A stretch of DNA of 64,000 nt from a virus, in the IMG/VR virus record IMGVR_UViG_3300025108_000024, positions 1 through 64,000 of that record; one strand, given 5' to 3'. The translations under genes and the position numbers were made by a program. Each line of letters starts with the position of its first letter. The first letter of the stretch is position 1. Below the pieces are notes generated by a model that worked only from the letters and a program-made list of their open reading frames with translations, searched no databases and had not been told where the DNA came from. This document shows, one piece after another, positions 9,345-54,143 of the stretch.

Positions 9345-12300
9345 TTAGTCTACGTAGAACTTTCTATTCTGATCTAGATTATCAAATCTTTTAATAGAAC
9401 TTAAGAATGGTAGTATATCAGCCCATTCTTTACCAGCTTTAAGCTTACCTTTATTTTTACCTCTTTGATAAACATAGTCTTTATCTTTAGCAAACTCTTC
9501 ATCGCTATAGTATATAGCACCCATACCTGAAGTAAATGTTACCCATAAAGCTTGTGCAAAATTTTCTAAAACACTAGCAGAAGCTATAGGATTCTTTATA
9601 AGCTGATAGGCTTGCGGTGTACCAAACCCAGGCCAGAATGCCACAAGTTCTTTTCCTGCTCTATCAACATTATATTTAGCTAAGTTTTTTAGTCTTTTCT
9701 CAATGTAACCATCATCGTCTTCATCTGGTAGCAAATCATCTAATAAACTACTTAAAGCAAATACTAAAAATACAACACCTATCTCTCCAATAGTTTGATA
9801 AGCATTTTGTATTTTCTCATTTACTCTTTTATCTACATGACCATAATCAACGCTTTCAGCAGCTTGATTTTTAAAGTCTTTTAATAATTCTTCTCTATAG
9901 TTTTTTTCTAAGTTACCTACTTGATTTAGATTCTTTAGAGAGTAAGCCATAAACTTAGCAAAAGATCTATAACGTCCTTCTGTCCATCCTAGATTTTCAT
10001 CATAATATTCACTTCTCATTCTATTTTTAAGCAATGGTGCAACCCACTTCTTAAATTGTATTGCAAGCTTTCCTAAAAAGTGGCCTTGTAAAACCATTCT
10101 ATCTGCTCTTGCATAACTACCGTGAACTCTTTTATTTACTTCTCTTATATTATTTCTAAACTGTCTTCTATAATCTGTATTCCATTCTATTTCATTACCG
10201 TCTCTATCTAAGATCTTATACTTCTTTGTATCAACCTCAATTTTCTGTGTGGTATGATTAAACGTAGAAGCATCATAAAGATTCATTTCATTTCCACCTT
10301 CATCAACAGCAGTCATAGAAGCAACCATGGCCATACCTTGCTTTGTTTGAACATTGTATTCAAATGAATCATTTAATAAATAGAACCAGTTTGCTGCCTT
10401 TTGAACATAGCTTTCACCTTCTTCCACAGCACCTGTCTCTCTTATCTCTACATCAGAATCCATCATTCTTAAAGCATCAACCCAACCTTCCCATTTAGTC
10501 ATTGGTTTCTTAGGATCATAGATACCTTTTTTACCATCAATAATATAACCTGTTCTTTTTATTTGTTTTAGTATAACCTGCTCTTTATTAAAGGCAGCGG
10601 TCATTTGTAAATATGCTTTTCTTTTATAATACTTTGCACCAATAAGTTCTAAAGTATTATTTAATCTACCAATAATTAAATTATTAATGTTACCCATCGG
10701 GTTAGTTGCAACATAAGCAAAAGAAGAGTACTGCATTAAACCATTAGTCATTTTTTCTAATGCATTTTGCGTGACATTCTCGTTATCATAGTAGACCATA
10801 CTAGCCCATTTCTTTATTCTCTTCTTAATGTTCTTTTCTATCTGATCTTCTTTGTTACCTACAGGTTTAAAATAATCTTTAGTCTTACCCACAATTTTAG
10901 CAACCATATCATTTTTGGATTTCTCTGCTAAAACCTCTCTCTTTTCAGAAACTTTTATAAATGCTTTGACTATATCATCTATAGTTGACATTACTTCATA
11001 GTTTTCTGCCATTGAATTAAATTTCAAAAGGCTTGAACCTAAATCTAAACTTAGAGTTTCTGCAGTTGCTTTATTCTCAATTCTATTTAATTGTGCTAAT
11101 AGCTTTCCTTGTTCTTCATTAAAATATTTAGCAGATACTTTTCCTTGCTTTCTTAATTCTGATAAATCTTCTATCTTTTTATTTATTGCATCTAAGTCAC
11201 TTTGTTTTCCTAAGCTTCCTGTAAAGTATATAGGAAGACTATTAACAACATCACCTTTTTCATTAGTTACAACAGTTCTAAAAGTACCTGTTTCATTAAA
11301 TATATCACTGCCTTTTCTTTTTAACTTAGCGTATGCTTTAGTAAAGAAGCTACCTTCTTCTTTTAGTCTATTAGATATATTAGATTTAATTGTTGGTATC
11401 CTACCCACCATTTGTTCTGACATACTTGGTGGCAGTTTCTCAACTAACTCTTTCATGGTAGAGACATAGAAACTATAAAATTCTTTTCTTGCTTTACCCA
11501 ATGCATCACCAGGTGTAGGATTCATGATTGAATCATACTTGCTGTTTAGCATACTTACCTTTTTGCCTTTTATAATAGCACTATCATTAGCTACTTTAAA
11601 TTTATTATTAGGTATCCACATTTGACCAGGAGTAACAACTCCAGTTGGGCTACCATCTAATTTCTGTGCAAAGTATGTGTCAATGTATTTACCGTTATTA
11701 TTTCTAAAGTTTCTCCATGCTTTTTCATTAACTGTTCTTTTCTTTTTCCATATAACAGCCCCACTTTCAGTTACAACTGGGCTTTCATATTTTGCTCTAA
11801 GCTTTTTATACTCTTCAGTGTATCTATGAAAATTACCATCTATGATATTATCTTGATCATCTGCTCTTTCTGCAGTCCAAAACCTTGCTGCTTCTTGCTT
11901 AGCCAACCAAAGATCTTTATTATATTTTAGTTGCGCGGCAGTTCCTTCTTCTGTATTATCTATTTCTAAATAAACTTTTTTATTACCATCTTCATCATAA
12001 GCTTTCTTTCTAAGTTCACTTATCATGTCATAGTATTGCTGACCTAAACGTTGAACTATAAAGCCAGTAGGTAAACCTTTCTCATTAAACTCAACCATAT
12101 AATTATATAGGTCTTGAGGTTTAGTACCAGGGTCAAGCTTAGCAAGTGTATTAGCATAATTCCTAATTATTAATTCTTTTGCTTGTGCTTTATCTAAATA
12201 CTCTTGAGCTTTAGCTTTATATATTTTATCTAACGTTGCTAATAAAGTATCTCTACTTGTTGCTAGATCACCAGTTTGATATTCAATAACACCAATGTCT

Positions 12301-18000: not shown

Positions 18001-21000
18001 CTTTCATACTGTTCTCCAAAATTATCATAGTCAATACCGTTAAAAGATATTTGACGTATAACCTGTCCTTTTACAGAAACCTTTCTCATTTTAATTTTAG
18101 CTTCACCTAAAACATTTAAATAAAGGTTAGGTAATACAGCTGCTCCAATAGAAGCTGCTCCCTCCTTATTGTTTGAGAATGCTTTAAATTTACCAAGTAA
18201 GTTATCTACATCTAAACCGTCTTCTCTAAAAAGCTCAGCCAATTCAGGCAATTCTGTTTGTATATAATCTCTAACCTCAATTAAAGGATCTAAAACAGCA
18301 GGGTCATATGCAATAGGGTTAACACCATCTTTTGTTGAAATGGTATTACCTTCATTAGACCATAAAGCAAACTTGTAATCTAATATCTGATTATTTAAAG
18401 CAGCTTCATAAGGCATACCTTTTTTCTTTACATGTGCATCAAACTTCTTTTGTGTTGTAGGAAGATTTAATACTTTAAGTGCTCTTAAATAATCTTCTGA
18501 TAAACCTGTAAGTTCTTTAAATTCATTTAGCTCTTCTTCACTGTAAAGCATAAAGTCTTGGAAGTTCATTTTAGCTTTTTCAAAAGCATCAGCATAAATA
18601 CTTTTACCTTTTATGCCAGCTTCTTTTATGTAATGTATGTAATCTCTAAACTGATCTGTTTTAGATCTTGATAGGTCACCATACTCTACATAATTATTGT
18701 CTCCATCTTTATACCATTCTTTTATATGTGTGTATACTTTATCAATATCAAAATCCGCTCCTGATATTTCAATTAACTCTTTTGAGAATATTGCAGTTGA
18801 TCCATAAAATGCAGGTAAAAAGTCTACAAATTTAGTTGCATAAGCAGAATGTTTATCTTGAGATGGAATACGAACAGCAAATGCTTTTTGTACAACGTCA
18901 GGCATTTTAATATTAGTTCCATCAAAGTCTTCTGCTATTTCTGCAAAGTGTGCAGGTGCTAAACCTTCTGAATATCTTTGACCCGTAAAGTTACCTTTGT
19001 TGTCATACTCTTTTAAATTGTGTCTTAGTTGATCTAACACAACAACGCCTTTACCACCAGAGTTTTCTAATGCTGCTTCTAAACCTATTAGTTTACCGTC
19101 TTCATCTGCTCTTATTTGTATAGCAGGTGGGTTATCTAAAAAGTTATAATACTTCTCTCTAATTATTTCATGCTTATCAGGATTACCATTTTCATCAACA
19201 GAAAATACTCTTCTAACAACGTTAACGCCAAAGTCTGATGCAAGTGCTAAGGATAAACCAGGAGATTTTTCAGACATTGTATCTTTAGCAAAATAACTTA
19301 AGAATAATTGCTGAAAGCTTTTTTGAACCATTGGGTTATTTAAATCATAACCGTTTTCAGGATTAAAATATTCAAGAACATTGCTTGATGCCTGACTTGC
19401 TTTTAATGATTCTGATGCAAACTTTAAAAAGTTTTCTAAGTCTACCGTAAGTTTACCTTGTTGTTTGCTTAGATTAAGCTCGTTCATTCCAGCCTCAACT
19501 GTAAAGTTTGTAATAAGATTTACTTTACCAAAATATTTTAGATTAAGTCTATTGGTTGTTGCTCTGTGGTATTGTTCCCTTAATTTACCAATAGGTATTT
19601 TAGTTTCTACACCAAATGCTTTTACATAAACTTCTTCAGAATCTAAAAGCTCTGATGAAATAAGACTTTTCATCTGAGTAGGATCTGTAATTATAACTTT
19701 GTTTGATGGGTTAACTAATTGTAGACCCATAAACTCAGCCTTAAGATCTGTAGTTACAACAGCATTATCATTAGGATTAAATTCAGAAAAAGCCTCTTCA
19801 TAAGATAGAGTATTCTTTTTCATCATTTTAGATGCACTTAAAGGTGCAGCAATACCCAATGTATTATTTCCTTGCTCTTCTACTTTCTCTAATCTTAGTC
19901 TAAGATTATGTAGTTTTTCATATTGTGGTTTAGGTGTACCATCTACCTTCGTTGTTAATTCAGGGGTAAGTACTACTGCTGACATTTTTAAGAATGTCTG
20001 ACCGTCACCATATACTAATTTTAATGAATTAAATACAGCACCTTCTTTTATGTAACCTCCTTTACCAAACAGTTCTTCTGCATTAACTCTTTCACCTTTT
20101 TCAATTCTATTAATTAAATCAGCTTTTCTTGCATCCAATTGTGCAAAGCCAAATAACATGTGTCTTAATGCTTTGGTTGTTATATACATTTGAGCATCTG
20201 CTCTTTCTCCTTTACCTTTGGCGTATGTACGGTCAAACTCTGGATCAGTAAATGATATAAGGGATATGTTATCATTTGTATGGTTAACACCTAACCTTTC
20301 ATCAAATACAGGAGAGCTTGCACTTATGTGAGATGCGTTTTGCATCTTAGCTCTTTTAACTTTATCAACTGCATCCTTAAGTGATATAGCTTGATCACCT
20401 AGTATTAATTGATTTAATGCTTTTGTATTTAACCAATCATTAAAAAAGATCTGCATTAAATTATGACGTTCATTGTCTCTTATAAGATTTAACTGTTCCA
20501 TAGCAGCATCTCCTTGACGATTCCCTTCATCATTTTCAATACCGTTCTTTATATCATCAGTTATCATACTTCTCACAAGAAAGTTATCTAGAGTTTGATC
20601 AAACCTATCAAACTCTTGCATAAGTCTTTCATTCAAGACTTTATTAAACATATCTAATGACATGTTCTCACTTAAACTTTCAATTGCTTCTTCTAATGTT
20701 GCATCTGTATTTTCTATTGCAAAGGTTTCTAACGCTTCTTTATAGTTAAACTCTAAGCCACTATATTCTTCTGCCGTAAAGTTTTCTACAGGAACTAGTC
20801 TATAACCATATTTGCTTTTATTTCTTCCACTAGTTTTTTGACCACCTCTTAAAAATTCAGCAATTACTGCAGTGTCAACCCACAAGCTTACGTCACCTAC
20901 TTTAACTTTATTCTTTGTTAAATACTTTGCTTGTTCTTTCTTATCTAAACTCTCATACTCTTGTTGATTAAGAACAGCTGAACCAAGACTAGCAACAATT

Positions 21001-46590: not shown

Positions 46591-47472
46591 TTATCCTAAT
46601 GTAGGTCCGCTTTTAAACATATTGTAATAATTGTGGTATTGTGCTTTTCTATTTACTTCCCACATTTTTTTAAGCTCTGCAAAATCAGGGGTGTTAACAA
46701 ATGACAATGCATTATTTCTTGAAGCTCTTAATCTCCCTTCTATAAGGCCTAATTGATTACTAACATTTTCTCCATTAAAAATCATGTTTTCTAATATTCT
46801 TTGTTTTAATGCATATTCATAATATTCATTACAATATGGATGATCTAAAACTAATAGTCTTCCATCAGCATCTTCCATTGCACCTTGAAAATTAATATAT
46901 ACTTTACCGGTCTTAAAGTTTGTTTTTAAAAAACCATCTTTAATCTCTCCTACCATTTCAGACCGTACATTAATATTAGGACAATCACATGTAGCATCAT
47001 TGACGTTAGCTATACGTAAAGACTCAAAAGCAGTATAACTTCTATACTCCCCGGCTCCTACTTTTTGTACTAATTTATGGCCTGTTCCATTATCACATTC
47101 TTTTACTATACATACATCATTACACCCAGGATCTTCACATGGACCTGAGCTACCTGGAGCAGGAACATAATCTACAGCAACATCTTCTACATGTGTGCCT
47201 GATGGCATACTCTGTTGTACTGTATAGCTGCCACATATAAATGCATAATTTAAATATGCAAAATCATGTGGTAGTTTAGCTTTTCCATGCTCTATGTCTA
47301 ATACTACTTGTTTTGTTCTATGAATCCTTATTCCTAAGTCATAGTTTACTCTTGTTGCTACTTTAATCAACTGAGCAGAATCTATCATTCCATCTAACGC
47401 ATAGCTGGAAAAATCAATAGATACATCTTCCATTAAACTATCAAACGTTCTGTATTTATGTGATATTGCCAT
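46591..47472 (-). CDS. Tail ring/tubular protein
   Basis: IEHGKAKLPHDF, FKTGKVYINF, DADGRLLVLD..EYALK pattern; synteny upstream of the muzzle gene. Confidence 0.65.
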   Translation of the reverse strand: MAISHKYRTFDSLMEDVSIDFSSYALDGMIDSAQLIKVATRVNYDLGIRIHRTKQVVLDIEHGKAKLPHDFAYLNYAFICGSYTVQQSMPSGTHVEDVAVDYVPAPGSSGPCEDPGCNDVCIVKECDNGTGHKLVQKVGAGEYRSYTAFESLRIANVNDATCDCPNINVRSEMVGEIKDGFLKTNFKTGKVYINFQGAMEDADGRLLVLDHPYCNEYYEYALKQRILENMIFNGENVSNQLGLIEGRLRASRNNALSFVNTPDFAELKKMWEVNRKAQYHNYYNMFKSGPTLG

Positions 47473-48143
47473 TATCTATGTAAATTAATTTTGTTATCTG
47501 AATCTTCTGCTGGTATCTTTAGTGTATTCATCATTACAGCAAGAACCTGTTGTTCTATTTCTGCAAACAATGCTTCTGGTATATTCATCTCATGTTCATA
47601 CCTTGGCTTACAATCATCTTCTGAGTTACATAACCAATCAGATATATCATCATCAAAAACACCTTCTAGCTTTATTGCATCCCATTCTATATTTGGGAAG
47701 TATAAATAGCCGTTCAAATACCAAAAATATTTTTGATTGTTATATCTAAAAGATGTTGTTTTAGTCATAGAAGTATAAGTACCGGGATGAGTTGCTTGTA
47801 GCTCAATAGATCCATCAATAGAACTTACTGTTCTAATTAGTGGTCCCCAATAACCTTGCAACATATTAGGTAATTTAATCTTTGTACGTTTTATTGTACA
47901 TCCAGATTGTATACCTGTACACTCTGCCTCTACTTTGTCTACTTCTATTAATTCAATAAATGGGAGTGATTTCCATATTGCATTAAATTTCATAAGCTTA
48001 TTTGCACTGTCTTGTCTTCTGATTAGAAGTTGTGCAAACTTTTGTATCAAGCTATATACATATCTGTCGGTAACAAAAGCATCTTGTACTTCTGCTTTAA
48101 CTTGACCTCTTATTCTTGATATTACTGATCCTATACTTGTCAT
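47472..48143 (-). CDS. Tail ring/structural protein
   Basis: IELIEVD..EC..C..KRTK.KLP and YFWYLNGYLYF pattern; synteny in the crAss-like tail module. Confidence 0.65.
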   Translation of the reverse strand: MTSIGSVISRIRGQVKAEVQDAFVTDRYVYSLIQKFAQLLIRRQDSANKLMKFNAIWKSLPFIELIEVDKVEAECTGIQSGCTIKRTKIKLPNMLQGYWGPLIRTVSSIDGSIELQATHPGTYTSMTKTTSFRYNNQKYFWYLNGYLYFPNIEWDAIKLEGVFDDDISDWLCNSEDDCKPRYEHEMNIPEALFAEIEQQVLAVMMNTLKIPAEDSDNKINLHR

Positions 48144-50732: not shown

Positions 50733-52817
50733 TTATATAAATTCACTGTCATCAATAGTCCATGAAGTTGTTCCACCATTTGTACCTCCTGGAGACGTTA
50801 TTCTAATCCATACTACACTACTAGTTGATTGGGCTTTAGTAAAACTAAATTCAAAATGACCATCACTATGTAAACAAGTATTTGGTGTTTCACCAAAACA
50901 TTGACCAGTACCTCCTATCTGGAAGTTATTTGAACCACCTCTTGCCTGTCCATTTGGATTAGCAACTGTTTTAGAAGTTGTATTATTACAAACGATAGAG
51001 TCTATTATTTGAATTGTTACTGTTCCCGTTCCTGTCTGATCCCATTCATTTTGTCCTCCAGCATTTCCATTACCAGCACCTACATAATTAAATTGATCTA
51101 GACCTTGATAAACCCCGTTCTGTGGATTAGTAGCAGTTACACTATCACCTACATATAAAGAGTCTGCTACTACTTGTCCTAAAGCTATATCATTTGAGGC
51201 AGAGCTATATATTGCTTGTATTCTATCTGGAACACCTTGTGCATCAAACATAACACGTAATGTACCAGGACCAGTACCAACTGTAAATCCTATTAGATAC
51301 TCACCTGCATTACCTCCTGCTGTAATATTGTCACCAGGAGAAATTCCTATTGAAGGTACATTAAATGTAACAGGATTACATCCTACTTCATTACCATTTA
51401 AGCTAACAGATATTGCAACCGAATAATTTGTATCATCAACTAAATTTGTCAATTGTATTGTTGCATTTACTGGTAGACCACTTTGACTAAATGAAGTAAG
51501 TTGAGTATTATTATCTGTATTAGTAACAACAAATAAATATACTGCAGCTGTACCTAAATAATGATTAAAGGTTATGCTTGCTGTTCCAGCATTTTCATCT
51601 ATATCAACCACCTGAACATTTTCTGGACATTGTAGAGCACCTTCAGTTGTATCTGTTACTACAGCATCACATGTATCCTGACCATCTGTAATACAAAAAT
51701 TAATTGAAGTAGTTAGTGTACCTACTGTTGTTAAACTAGTATTTGTTAAATCAAAAATATAAGGTGTTGTTGTGCCTGCATAATTTACAAATGAAAATAC
51801 GTCTTGTGCTGTAACACCATTAGAATCAGTTATTGTTATTGTTGTACTTCCTCCACAATCATTCCATCCAGATGGTATAACTGATCCTTGAAAAGTTAAT
51901 TCTACACCCGTTGGATTACCTGAATTATTAACTATTATTTCAGAATCAAAATCAAAGATTATTGAATCACATACACCAGGGCAGCAATTTAATTGTATAT
52001 CTTGTATTGCTTGGTGCATATCACATATGACAATCCAAGCATTTCCCACAGCATGTGCTAGGGTTGTAGGTGAAGCTACCCATCCAGCTACACCACCATA
52101 TGTTCCTGGTGATGAAAGCATAGGTTCAGAGCTTGTTACACAGCTTGCTTGATTTACAGCATTTCCAATTAATGGAGGTGCACCTACTGCAGTTTCTAAA
52201 TCACAGTATCTCTCTTCTAAAGCTATTAATAATACAGATGCTGCTATTGTTTGATTTTCTAATATACAACTTGAAAAAACTTGAGGATCTCCTCCTCCTA
52301 TACTACAATTACCATCTGCATCTAAAACACAGTCTTCAAGAATAGTTAATCTAATTTCATGATCTGCTAATGTAACTTGAATAATTTGTACTGCTTGAAT
52401 CAAAGTACATATCTCATCAGCAAGCAGTATTGCATATTGATCTAATGGTAATGATGTAAATTGATTTCCTTGGTCATCTGTATAAGGAGATAAACAAGCA
52501 GGAAGTGGTATAATAGGTAATTGATAACCGGGCTCATCTTCTTCATCACAAATATAATCTATGATAAATTGAAGTACGTCCTTAACTGTATCTGGTTGAG
52601 ACTGTCCTGCTGGAAGCGTACATAGTAAATCTAAACCATCTAAATTTGGTTCAGGTATTACTAGATCACAAAGTTGTTGGGCAAGGGCAGCTATTACATC
52701 AGAGACTGTATCACCTGTACACAAATCAATACATGGGATATTTGGTCCTTGCCAAATAACACAATTAGAAGATATATTTGAGCACGGTGCTGTGCTGGTT
52801 TCAGTCTTTGGTAACAT
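50733..52817 (-). CDS. Cys-rich virion structural protein with FN3-like domain
   Basis: SSNCVIWQGPNIPCI N-terminus, coiled-coil HEIRLTILE, LTNLVDDTNYSV; acidic. Confidence 0.7.
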   Translation of the reverse strand: MLPKTETSTAPCSNISSNCVIWQGPNIPCIDLCTGDTVSDVIAALAQQLCDLVIPEPNLDGLDLLCTLPAGQSQPDTVKDVLQFIIDYICDEEDEPGYQLPIIPLPACLSPYTDDQGNQFTSLPLDQYAILLADEICTLIQAVQIIQVTLADHEIRLTILEDCVLDADGNCSIGGGDPQVFSSCILENQTIAASVLLIALEERYCDLETAVGAPPLIGNAVNQASCVTSSEPMLSSPGTYGGVAGWVASPTTLAHAVGNAWIVICDMHQAIQDIQLNCCPGVCDSIIFDFDSEIIVNNSGNPTGVELTFQGSVIPSGWNDCGGSTTITITDSNGVTAQDVFSFVNYAGTTTPYIFDLTNTSLTTVGTLTTSINFCITDGQDTCDAVVTDTTEGALQCPENVQVVDIDENAGTASITFNHYLGTAAVYLFVVTNTDNNTQLTSFSQSGLPVNATIQLTNLVDDTNYSVAISVSLNGNEVGCNPVTFNVPSIGISPGDNITAGGNAGEYLIGFTVGTGPGTLRVMFDAQGVPDRIQAIYSSASNDIALGQVVADSLYVGDSVTATNPQNGVYQGLDQFNYVGAGNGNAGGQNEWDQTGTGTVTIQIIDSIVCNNTTSKTVANPNGQARGGSNNFQIGGTGQCFGETPNTCLHSDGHFEFSFTKAQSTSSVVWIRITSPGGTNGGTTSWTIDDSEFI

Positions 52818-52819
52818 AA

Positions 52820-52928
52820 ATATCCTATTTTACTACTAATTAAACTAACTAGTATACTACTTTAATATACAAAAGTTTTTGTAAACAAACAAGAAGCTTG
52901 AATACTATTAAGCAGTAAAATAGGATAT
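52820..52928 (-). repeat. Inverted repeat (15 bp perfect, 18 bp with G-U) flanking a promoter motif
   Basis: ATATCCTATTTTACT at 52820-52834 is the reverse complement of AGTAAAATAGGATAT at 52914-52928. Confidence 0.85.
52863..52893 (-). promoter_or_regulatory. Putative promoter, TTG-N20-TATATTA
   Basis: Recurrent TTTGTATATTA motif with TTG 20 nt upstream. Confidence 0.6.
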
Positions 52929-52949
52929 ATTAAAAAAGTATAGTATAGA

Positions 52950-53222
52950 TTATTCTTTTACTTTTTCTATTTCTGTAATAGATCCATCAGCTAGAGATAT
53001 ATTAACATGACCATAATTGTCTTGTAATGTACTAGTGAACTTTTGCATTTCTAATTTCATTTCTGCATGATCTTGCAGTAATTCATATTTAGCTATTTCA
53101 ATGTTAGCTAAATTATTTATAGCATTTGATAAGCTTTTTTGCAATCCTTGTAAAGTTTCTAACTCACTACTTGTAATAGTTTTAGAAACCGGTGCTGCTT
53201 TTTTTGTTGATTTTTTTGCCAT
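52950..53222 (-). CDS. Small coiled-coil protein, probable fibre assembly chaperone
   Basis: Helical hairpin ending LQDNYGHVNISLADGSI, located at the end of the fibre cluster. Confidence 0.55.
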   Translation of the reverse strand: MAKKSTKKAAPVSKTITSSELETLQGLQKSLSNAINNLANIEIAKYELLQDHAEMKLEMQKFTSTLQDNYGHVNISLADGSITEIEKVKE

Positions 53223-53249
53223 GACGCATTTGATTTATTTGTTATTATA

Positions 53250-53257
53250 CAAATATA
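53250..53257 (-). promoter_or_regulatory. Canonical Bacteroidota -7 box TATATTTG
   Basis: Exact TAnnTTTG about 27 nt upstream of ATG 53222. Confidence 0.55.
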
Positions 53258-53282
53258 GTAAATTAATTTTAATTTCCTTTTA

Positions 53283-54143
53283 TTATCTTTTTCCTTCTAT
53301 ATTACACATTGCAACCCCAAATTGAGTACCATCTTCCAAAGTTACTGTAATACACATAGCTCTACTATCAACAACCCATCCTGTTATTGCTGCTGGTTTT
53401 TGACCGTCATAACTTACTTCAAATCCACCACCATCTGCACCAGCGGGTCCTTGTGGCCCTTGAGGTCCAGTTGCTCCAGTTGCTCCTTTAGTACCGTTAC
53501 TACCAGCAGGCCCTTGTGGCCCAGCAGGTCCTTGAGGTCCTGTATTACCCGTATTTCCTTTTGCTCCGGCTGCACCTGTGTCTCCCTTTGCACCTGCAGG
53601 ACCCCTTGCTCCAGCAGCTCCGGCTGCACCTGTATCTCCTTTTGACCCGGCTGGTCCTCTTGCACCAGCTGCACCATCTGATCCAGCTGCTCCAGCGGGT
53701 CCCCTAGCTCCAGCTGCACCGTCTGCCCCAGCTGTTCCTGCCGGACCTCTTGAACCTGCATCACCTTTATCACCTTTGGCTCCAGCTGCTCCATCTGTCC
53801 CAGCTGGCCCTCTAGCTCCAGCATCTCCGGTATCTCCTTTGTCACCCTTAGCACCTCTTGCTCCAGCATCACCAGTATCCCCTTTGTCTCCTTTAGCTCC
53901 AGCATCTCCTTTAGCTCCAGCATCTCCTTTAGCTCCCCTGTCTCCTTTGGCACCGTCTGATCCGTTTGTACCTGCATCTCCTTTGGCACCTGCATCTCCT
54001 TTGGCACCTGCGTCACCTTTGTCTCCTTTAGGTCCTTGGCCGCCAGTTGCACCTACAAACTGTGGAAAGTTTGCTGTGTTAAAATTACCAGTGTGTAATA
54101 CTTCATTACCACCTACTGTTGTTCCTTGTTTTAAATCTGCCAT
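53283..54143 (-). CDS. Collagen-like fibre protein
   Basis: About 70 uninterrupted Gly-X-Y triplets between short N- and C-terminal domains. Confidence 0.9.
   Translation of the reverse strand: MADLKQGTTVGGNEVLHTGNFNTANFPQFVGATGGQGPKGDKGDAGAKGDAGAKGDAGTNGSDGAKGDRGAKGDAGAKGDAGAKGDKGDTGDAGARGAKGDKGDTGDAGARGPAGTDGAAGAKGDKGDAGSRGPAGTAGADGAAGARGPAGAAGSDGAAGARGPAGSKGDTGAAGAAGARGPAGAKGDTGAAGAKGNTGNTGPQGPAGPQGPAGSNGTKGATGATGPQGPQGPAGADGGGFEVSYDGQKPAAITGWVVDSRAMCITVTLEDGTQFGVAMCNIEGKR
53430..54053 (-). repeat. Collagen-encoding tandem 9/18-nt repeats
   Basis: Repeated ctttagctccagcatctc / ctttggcacctgcatctc units; locally high GC. Confidence 0.85.

Follow-up and report, generated by a model that had tools for sequence, protein, structure and literature searches.

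A long-range helix over the start of a large crAss-like phage gene, and its probable role as a transcript-origin-dependent translation gate

In phage T4, the initiation regions of genes e (lysozyme), soc, 49 and I-TevI are sequestered in early or long transcripts, and a late promoter lies inside the structure (PMC3014915). Middle promoters mapped in the crAss-like phage phi14:2 have the form cTTG-N20-TAnnTTTG (Drobysheva et al., bioRxiv 10.1101/2020.03.07.982082). The phi14:2 promoters P070, P075 and P108, which we read from the genome record, have the same architecture as the internal motif described below. In T7 class II/III regions, long intergenic hairpins have a promoter in or beside them, and transcripts carry the whole or partial structure according to their origin. 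The hosts of crAss-like phages are Bacteroidota, whose most abundant viruses include these phages. To our knowledge, the virion RNA polymerase and a handful of mapped promoters are nearly all that is known of their gene regulation.

The window analyzed here is a stretch of 64,000 nucleotides (positions 1 to 64,000 of IMG/VR record IMGVR_UViG_3300025108_000024); the source record is 92 kb and is estimated to be 81% complete. The window belongs to a crAss-like phage (Crassvirales), and the host is presumed to belong to the Bacteroidota. All features described are on the minus strand. A small ORF of 90 aa (52950-53222), coiled-coil-like and with a Lys-rich N-terminus, lies upstream of the ORF proposed to be regulated, which encodes 694 aa (50733-52817), is Cys-rich and is located in a tail-fibre neighbourhood. 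In the 694-aa protein the N-terminal ~480 aa are conserved, there are tandem FN3-like domains, and the C-terminus is variable. Its AlphaFold2 model is of moderate quality (pLDDT 68), and only the tandem FN3-like domains are visible. Searches for the function of both proteins returned nothing from PHROGs, Pfam, PDB sequence search or the protein atlas. The neighbourhood and the modelled FN3-like domains make it plausible that the 694-aa ORF is a structural gene.

Relatives were sampled as 76 viral-contig loci carrying homologues of the 694-aa ORF, beside which there are roughly 420 further hits on viral contigs; the 76 loci gave 62 non-redundant leaders, and promoter motifs were counted over 65 non-redundant loci. 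The small ORF is syntenic in about 62 of the 76 relatives, and the common junction consists of a ~90-aa gene, a ~130-nt spacer and the large gene. Neither DNA nor protein searches found a close relative among deposited phages, and for the 694-aa gene no homologue exists in phi14:2 or elsewhere among them. The relatives form two clades, group A (which includes the window) and group B, and these were analyzed separately because their helix registers are shifted by 2 columns; RNAalifold on a single alignment of all 62 leaders recovers only the core of the inner hairpin P2. The closest homologues (92%, 90%, and 67% identity) were left out of the covariation alignments.

A conserved helix between the two genes

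The spacer RNA forms a long-range helix, P1, in which 52928-52911 (5' arm) pairs with 52837-52820 (3' arm) in 18 contiguous pairs, including one G.U pair (G52913.U52835). This stem had been proposed in an earlier, sequence-only reading of the window, and the sequence itself, a repeat search and folding all bear it out; both arms are also found in the group A alignment. The core arms are separated by 73 nt. With mismatches, the 5' arm extends to 52906 and the 3' arm to 52842, and P1 can be lengthened to ~22 pairs in the window; the inverted-repeat search returned arms 52820-52842 and 52906-52928 (23 nt, 87%). The 5' arm begins 21 nt past the small-ORF stop, upstream of the internal promoter motif. 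The 3' arm forms the last nucleotides of the large-gene leader, and its end, U52820, is 2 nt before A52817 of the ATG, exactly where the stem had been said to end. In the minimum free energy structure, UAAU at 52932-52929 pairs with the G of the AUG (52815-52817) and with the codon that follows it.

The fold of 171 nt has an energy of -38 kcal/mol (z = -3.84), which none of 200 shuffles equalled. The duplex of the P1 arms has -23.5 kcal/mol; when the 5' region is shuffled, the value is -10.5 +/- 2.5 (z = -5.1). P1 is present in both the minimum free energy and centroid structures of the whole 463-nt bicistronic RNA, and none of nine other promoter-like sites of the same genome has comparable arms. 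The cost of opening the 694-aa ORF start (computed for positions -18 to +6) is 17.9 kcal/mol, compared to a mean of 4.96 (sd 3.34) over the 63 ORF starts of the 92-kb record, among which it ranks second for start-site occlusion. For 25 representatives, pairing each arm with its own partner gave -272.9 kcal/mol versus -174.5 +/- 13.9 with permuted partners (z = -7.1; 0 of 20,000 permutations). The fold and arm-duplex z scores, the occlusion rank and the arm permutation rule out a chance complement; P1 is real, far beyond chance. A repeated element was also ruled out, as occurrence of the arm sequence elsewhere in the window is not beyond chance. Rfam covariance models had no match at E <= 1 in 52600-53400.

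The arm sequences diverge between the clades while their complementarity is kept. In the group A alignment, 95.6% of P1 cells are paired and five pairs show compensatory change, with C-G, U-G, and U-A all occurring at one pair position. P1 in group B is short (about 12 pairs, all A/U-rich) and is 89.3% paired, versus 37-55% in slid controls; its covariation score is 0.199 versus 0.129 (0 of 500 shuffles). In most relatives, group B among them, the AUG itself lies inside P1, and RNAalifold predicts the CAUAA/UUAUG helix over the start codon unaided. Mapped on a protein tree, Watson-Crick switches arose independently at least 11 times in P1 and 14 times in P2. Variants of the G.U type outnumber those of the A.C type (25 versus 6 pair positions, p = 0.0009), which argues for selection on the sense (coding-strand) RNA, and the G.U is kept at the same position in several relatives. 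Thus, covariation in related phages and the RNA role that had been favoured from a G-U-compatible mismatch are both upheld, and P1 is maintained, as sense-strand RNA, through compensatory change. The helix is tied to the small gene, as it occurs only where that gene is upstream.

Promoter-like motifs and the inner hairpin P2

The loop of P1 contains a sigma70-like motif (52862-52892). Its -33/-35 box, TTGTTT (52892-52887), is followed after 17 nt, the last of them TG, by TATATT (52869-52864); the spacer ends in TTTTG, and the -7/-10 box is TATATTAA at 52869-52862. A promoter had been placed in this 73-nt loop, and a promoter-like motif is indeed present there and conserved in 61 of 65 loci. 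Among relatives the motif between the arms is near-invariant as cTTG-N20-TATATTA, and TTGTATATT is located 51-62 nt before the ATG in the same 61 of 65 non-redundant loci. Transcription is predicted from the motif to start near 52853-52858, giving a leader of ~35-40 nt.

The small ORF has its own promoter-like site (53244-53272), TTAAAA-17-TATAAT, which overlaps TATATTTG, matching TAnnTTTG. The sequence-only reading had placed a "canonical" promoter at 53250 and called the internal one a variant. The site is there. The labels fit the relatives better than this genome, where strict TTG-N18-21-TAnnTTTG promoters were not found upstream of genes; in relatives, the -7 box is TAnnTTTG at 45 of 55 upstream sites and TATATTA at 61 of 65 internal ones. 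Seven copies of TTTGTATAWTA occur in the genome, each intergenic and on the coding strand, and both promoter-like sites of the window carry it. Therefore, a T4-like temporal difference between them is not evident here.

A second hairpin, P2 (52881-52905), is indicated by folding and by relatives. It has 10-nt arms (52905-52896 and 52890-52881) and a 5-nt loop, and it encloses the -33 box. P2 is weak in the window (8 of 10 pairs) and strong and covarying in relatives. In group B it has an A-tract, a 9-bp stem, a 17-nt loop, the returning stem and U6, with an A/U-only stem that is 93.6% paired. P2 of the window's clade has a different register and is followed by AAAAAC with no U run. P2 stems contain 0-1 G-C pairs.

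Opening of the start site and rival explanations

The contrast between long and short leaders emerged from folding as had been proposed: opening the start in the window costs 17.9 kcal/mol with the long leader, 5.4 with the short leader, and 6.8 when the 5' part is shuffled. Across 54 loci with the small gene, the corresponding values are 9.8, 3.1, and 6.4 kcal/mol, and 8 loci without it gave opening energies of 3.6 and 3.9 kcal/mol. A/U-rich shuffles of the 5' region partly occlude the A-rich leader (6.4 versus 9.8 kcal/mol), and the predicted occlusion effect is modest in group B.

The intergenic segment 52818-52949 is best explained as a transcript-origin-dependent translation gate of the T4 e/soc/49 type, and we consider this explanation probable. 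RNA from the upstream promoter would read through the small gene, whose transcripts are the presumed source of such read-through RNA, and would carry both P1 arms. The 5' arm would pair with the large-gene leader once that leader is transcribed, leaving the initiation region double-stranded, AUG included in most relatives. In Bacteroidetes, initiation proceeds without Shine-Dalgarno pairing and is tuned by structure (PMC6847099). Because initiation in Bacteroidota dispenses with a Shine-Dalgarno sequence and is set largely by mRNA structure, P1 should block 30S binding on read-through RNA. If the internal motif fires at the predicted place, its RNA would have neither the 5' arm nor any P2, and its ~40-nt A/U-rich leader would be open and translatable. 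The amount of 694-aa protein would therefore depend on its own promoter only and be insulated from small-gene transcription. We infer from the modelled energies that long and short RNAs would differ in translation; the purpose of the gate may be timing or stoichiometry. The sequence-only reading had proposed this transcript-origin-dependent occlusion, and at the level of sequence every prediction of it held. In group B, most read-through might end at P2 and its U run, and P1 would then have little RNA to work with.

A broader reading is possible, although we think it rather unlikely. The spacer would be an undescribed dual-use DNA/RNA module, in which one stretch of ~110 nt acts as a promoter in DNA and as a two-helix (P1 + P2) insulator in read-through RNA, where the promoter's own spacer and -33 box would be folded into P2. 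The module, conserved in a large uncultured Crassvirales clade, would set the ratio or order in which the coiled-coil product of the small gene and its fibre-like partner are made, and processing or termination might act besides occlusion. If true, this would be a new cis-regulatory RNA family of crAss-like phages, beyond a T4 look-alike.

Other roles for the spacer were weighed against the gate. P1, perhaps stacked on P2, may be an RNase III-type processing site separating the two cistrons, as T7 R-sites do next to T7 promoters. With a cut there, the upstream mRNA would end in a protective 3' hairpin, and the downstream initiation region would be either freed or destroyed. RNase III cleaves double-stranded RNA of about two turns, and 18-22 pairs suffice for it; P1 in the window has 18 (one G.U), extendable to about 22. 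T7 RNase III sites adjoin promoters, and restriction of P1 to loci with the small gene upstream also fits separation of the cistrons. In group B, a gap of only 2 nt separates the 5' strand of P1 (12 pairs) from that of P2 (15 pairs), and stacking of the two could produce about 27 pairs. Processing is compatible with occlusion, but as the explanation of the spacer we consider it unlikely; no RNase III-specific sequence feature is present, group B P1 alone is too short, and occlusion predicts that the 3' arm always falls on the AUG or leader, as it does, whereas processing has no need of this. It is more doubtful still that the spacer serves the upstream gene, with P2 and its U run as a weak intrinsic terminator and P1 as a 3'-end stabiliser or back-up insulator. 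The A-tract, stem, and U6 layout of group B P2 and its strong covariation suit a terminator; the AAAAAC after P2 in the window's clade, the scarcity of G-C pairs (0-1), and the 17-nt loop in group B do not. A terminator scan found no canonical intrinsic terminator in the spacer (52818-52949), and P1 is followed by AUUUAUG or coding sequence. Any terminator at P2 would come before the 3' arm, and P1 can therefore form only in read-through RNA.

Ribosomes finishing the small ORF might instead unwind the base of the P1 stem and expose the AUG beyond it, so that read-through RNA would yield the large protein only while the small gene is being translated. The 5' arm does begin close to the stop (from ~11 nt past it in group B to 21 nt in the window), but a terminating ribosome covers ~9-10 nt past the stop and the arm is just outside its reach. 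A conserved promoter between the arms would also serve no purpose, and we regard such translational coupling as very improbable. A DNA-level element (invertible promoter, looping operator pair, or cruciform) is the least credible explanation and would be surprising. Inverted repeats do flank a promoter motif, and recombination sites evolving in concert could give the appearance of covariation. Against this, the arms enclose only 63-73 bp, G.U prevails over A.C, and in most relatives the start codon falls within the arms. The recombinase reported as absent from the window is missing from the whole 92-kb record, which has neither PF00589 (tyrosine) nor PF00239 (serine). The promoter faces the gene in all 61 non-redundant motif-bearing loci, with none inverted. 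A search for the inverted-state pattern matched no viral contig and one metagenome contig (L085), which is in normal orientation and was picked up only through the CAT-N4 that precedes the arm in its 5' flank. The invertible promoter, which had been offered earlier as the alternative, is therefore rejected given the lack of a recombinase in the 92-kb record, the lack of an inverted copy among the relatives' contigs, and the RNA-type substitution pattern.

Comparison with known systems

P1 is a covariation-supported candidate cis-regulatory RNA in Crassvirales with a simple, testable mechanism. The T4 sequestration principle dates from the 1980s; what is added here is breadth, not a new concept. 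Because the hosts initiate without Shine-Dalgarno sequences, mRNA structure should matter even more in these phages. The locus would also provide a ready-made, portable part, a promoter embedded in an insulating helix, and the junction of small gene, gate, and fibre-like gene can serve as a marker for annotating uncultured relatives.

Like T4 e, soc, and 49, the locus has a helix over the start region with a promoter-like motif immediately upstream of the start. As in those genes, long transcripts would carry both strands of the helix and the promoter's own RNA would lack the 5' strand. Unlike T4, the phage belongs to Crassvirales with a presumed Bacteroidota host, and there is no Shine-Dalgarno sequence, so that only the AUG and an A/U-rich leader are covered. 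The helix is also long-range (63-110 nt between arms) and is accompanied by a covarying P2 around the -33 box, and the promoter is a host-sigma-like variant, whereas T4 uses a gp55 late promoter.

The internal motif resembles phi14:2 middle promoters, which lie upstream of structural genes and are read by host RNA polymerase, in its cTTG-N20-8-mer box. The 8-mer differs, being TATATTA[AT] preceded by TTTTG here and TAnnTTTG in phi14:2, where a bracketing helix was neither reported nor looked for. As at T7 RNase III sites, transcripts of different origin would carry the whole or a partial hairpin; unlike those sites, the 3' arm here is locked to the start codon. Bacteroides invertible promoters share the inverted repeats flanking a promoter and the Bacteroidota-associated genome. 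This locus differs from them in having no recombinase, no inverted copies, a far shorter segment, and RNA-type substitutions.

Genomic setting of the junction

The window covers the first 64 kb of an IMG/VR virus record of 92.3 kb, a crAss-like phage. G+C content is about 32%, the minus strand carries nearly all genes, and the record encodes a CrAss_Ring_2 protein (47472-48143) and a 5054-aa ORF of a size typical of crAss virion RNA polymerases. A 132-nt spacer (52818-52949) separates a small ORF of 90 aa (52950-53222) from a large ORF of 694 aa (50733-52817), both on the minus strand. Just upstream are collagen-like tail-fibre genes with collagen repeats (PF01391; 53283-54143 and 56103-57605, minus strand), and a virion-surface role of the junction's proteins is plausible because these genes adjoin. 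Direct repeats with 9-nt periodicity at 53430-53549 reflect the G-X-Y repeats of collagen-like proteins.

Family, domain and structure-sequence database searches placed neither the 694-aa nor the 90-aa protein in a named family. In alignment A5, the N-terminal ~480 aa of the 694-aa family are conserved and cysteine-rich, with more than 20 invariant cysteines; the C-terminus is variable, with FN3 or VWA domains in part of the family. Tandem FN3-like domains are seen at about 290-550 in the AlphaFold2 model (pLDDT 68), and the N-terminal Cys-rich helical part had no match to solved folds.

Searching with a profile of the 694-aa protein gave more than 500 stretches of viral contigs, of which the best 80 loci were fetched; pattern scans added further copies. 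The gene was not found in any deposited phage. A small-ORF homologue lies directly upstream in about 62 of 76 loci, with a spacer of 125-135 nt. Conservation within the spacer is highest in the block cTTGTTTG..TTTTGTATATTATA, and TTGTATATT lies 51-62 nt upstream of the ATG in 61 of 65 non-redundant loci.

Helix P1 and its covariation

In minus-strand RNA, 52928-52911 pairs with 52837-52820 to form helix P1, which bears out the 18-bp stem proposed in the sequence-only reading: its 18 uninterrupted pairs, which include one G.U (G52913.U52835), end 2 nt upstream of the AUG of the 694-aa ORF. The arms reach 23 nt in an inverted-repeat search that allows mismatches. A 171-nt fold containing P1 has -38 kcal/mol (z = -3.84), and P1 is present in the MFE and centroid structures of the complete bicistronic RNA (463 nt). 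When the leader is folded by itself, from 52865 on, it does not outperform shuffled sequences, and its start region is weakly structured. Among ten promoter-like sites with a downstream ORF in the genome, complementary flanking arms occur only at the P1 site (arm duplex -23.5 vs. -10.5 +/- 2.5 kcal/mol, z = -5.1; z = -0.3 to 1.5 at the remaining sites). The 694-aa ORF start ranks second in predicted occlusion among 63 ORF starts. The sole start predicted to be more occluded (19.0 kcal/mol) belongs to 88598-89245 (plus strand) of the full record, outside the window; it shares 29 nt with the ORF before it, and may be miscalled or a second structured junction.

P1 is real and strongly conserved. 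Arm sequences vary between clades and complementarity is retained. In group A, the window's clade (10 sequences), 95.6% of cells are paired, compared to 38-51% with a slid partner. Two-sided changes occur at five pairs; one position is C-G, U-G or U-A across members, and another is U-A in the window and A-U in relatives. In the larger group B (44 sequences), CAUAAAUAUUUU pairs with AAAAUAUUUAUG or variants, and the helix includes the start codon. RNAalifold predicted it unaided, 89.3% of cells are paired (37-55% in slid controls), and none of 500 shuffles reaches its covariation score. Among 25 representatives with 3' arms that differ at five or more positions, pairing was far stronger for own than for permuted arms (z = -7.1, 0/20,000). 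Watson-Crick states switched at least 11 times on a quick protein tree, a count that phage recombination can inflate. Across both clades, 25 pair positions have G.U variants and six have A.C variants (p = 0.0009). Such an excess would be expected from selection on the coding-strand RNA; a DNA palindrome would lack it.

Putative promoters and hairpin P2

In the crAss-like phage phi14:2, host RNA polymerase and E. coli sigma70 holoenzyme both transcribe the mapped middle promoters (bioRxiv 10.1101/2020.03.07.982082). As read from the phi14:2 genome record (12142-12218, 19153-19229 and 47119-47151, minus strand), they are cTTG-N20-TAnnTTTG, which is the Bacteroidota -33/-7 layout with spacing fixed at 20 nt; promoter P070 has nearly no leader before the ATG. 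Between the P1 arms of the window are TTGTTT (52892-52887), 17 nt ending in TG, and TATATT (52869-52864), with a predicted transcription start at about 52853-52858. This putative internal promoter has the same frame, cTTG-N20-TATATTA[AT], with a variant -7 box. TTTGTATAWTA occurs seven times in the 92-kb record, always intergenic and on the coding strand (5864, 6281, 38195, 52873 and 53253 on the minus strand of the window; 66944 and 68309 of the full record), and probably represents the phage's main middle/late promoter family. A TTG-type box lies about 17-20 nt upstream of each copy. The sequence-only reading set a canonical upstream promoter against an internal variant. This contrast holds mainly in relatives, where the small gene's promoter is canonical TAnnTTTG in 45 of 55; at the window site, TATATTTG and TATAATA are both present. 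In sequence type, the small gene's promoter and the internal one thus usually differ.

A second hairpin, P2, surrounds the -33 box. In group B its 15-bp stem pairs the promoter spacer with the bases immediately before the -33 box and is followed by a U run; 93.6% of cells are paired, with at least 14 independent switches on a quick tree, again open to inflation by phage recombination. In the window's clade P2 has a different register (52905-52896 with 52890-52881), and in the window it is weak (8 of 10 pairs). Both P2 arms and the 5' arm of P1 are upstream of the predicted start, so these structures are possible only in RNA from upstream. Their conservation is indirect evidence that upstream-derived RNA is made and matters. 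Within the group B leader, the block GTAC-ATTATAGTAAAA is also strongly conserved (columns 126-141 of alignment A3, in L016:2371-2506 and the remaining 43 rows); it falls after the predicted start and before the 3' arm of P1. Neither P1 nor P2 accounts for this block, which may be a translation enhancer or protein-binding site.

Proposed translational gating and its alternatives

Bacteroidetes lack Shine-Dalgarno-directed initiation and use mRNA structure together with A-rich leaders to tune initiation (PMC6847099). Leaders at the junction are A/U-rich and without Shine-Dalgarno sequences. Read-through RNA from upstream would hide the initiation region of the large gene, while RNA from the internal promoter would leave it exposed. 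In the window, the predicted cost of opening positions -18 to +6 is 17.9 kcal/mol in the long (read-through) RNA; the short RNA needs 5.4, and shuffling the 5' part gives 6.8. In loci with the small gene (n = 54) the values are 9.8 (long) and 3.1 kcal/mol (short). In the eight non-redundant loci without it the promoter is kept, no helix is present, and the start is equally open in both RNAs (3.6 and 3.9 kcal/mol), a natural control in line with the covariation.

Large-gene homologues without an upstream small gene are L053, L055; L096-L098, L102, L104, L112, L115; L021, L040, L100, L109 and L114. In some, the promoter is missing and the gap to another ORF is 13 nt. In others the promoter is retained, with an upstream stop codon so close before the -33 box that the spacer has hardly any room, or none, for a 5' arm; P1 was not seen in these (energies computed for L021 and L040 only). 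As natural loss-of-helix variants, small-gene-less loci are usable as controls.

Start occlusion dependent on transcript origin, as the sequence-only reading proposed, is the best-supported explanation and somewhat favored overall; leader folding and covariation in relatives both agree with that reading, which was correct in essence. An RNase III-type processing site is unlikely, and a terminator or stabilizer role of P2/P1 is slightly less likely still. Translational coupling is improbable. Least probable is a DNA-level element such as an invertible promoter, and the preference for an RNA role was well founded: no recombinase was found in the 92-kb record, no inverted copies were found in relatives' loci or by a pattern scan of viral and metagenome contigs for the inverted state, G.U is favored over A.C, and the arms include the start codon in most relatives. 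On these grounds DNA-level readings of the inverted repeat were rejected.

The closest precedent for hiding a start region according to transcript origin is phage T4, in genes e, soc, 49 and I-TevI (PMC3014915). Our verdict from comparative sequence and folding is that P1 probably represents a member, in Crassvirales, of the T4-type transcript-origin-dependent translation gates, to which the nested covarying hairpin P2 around the promoter would be an addition.
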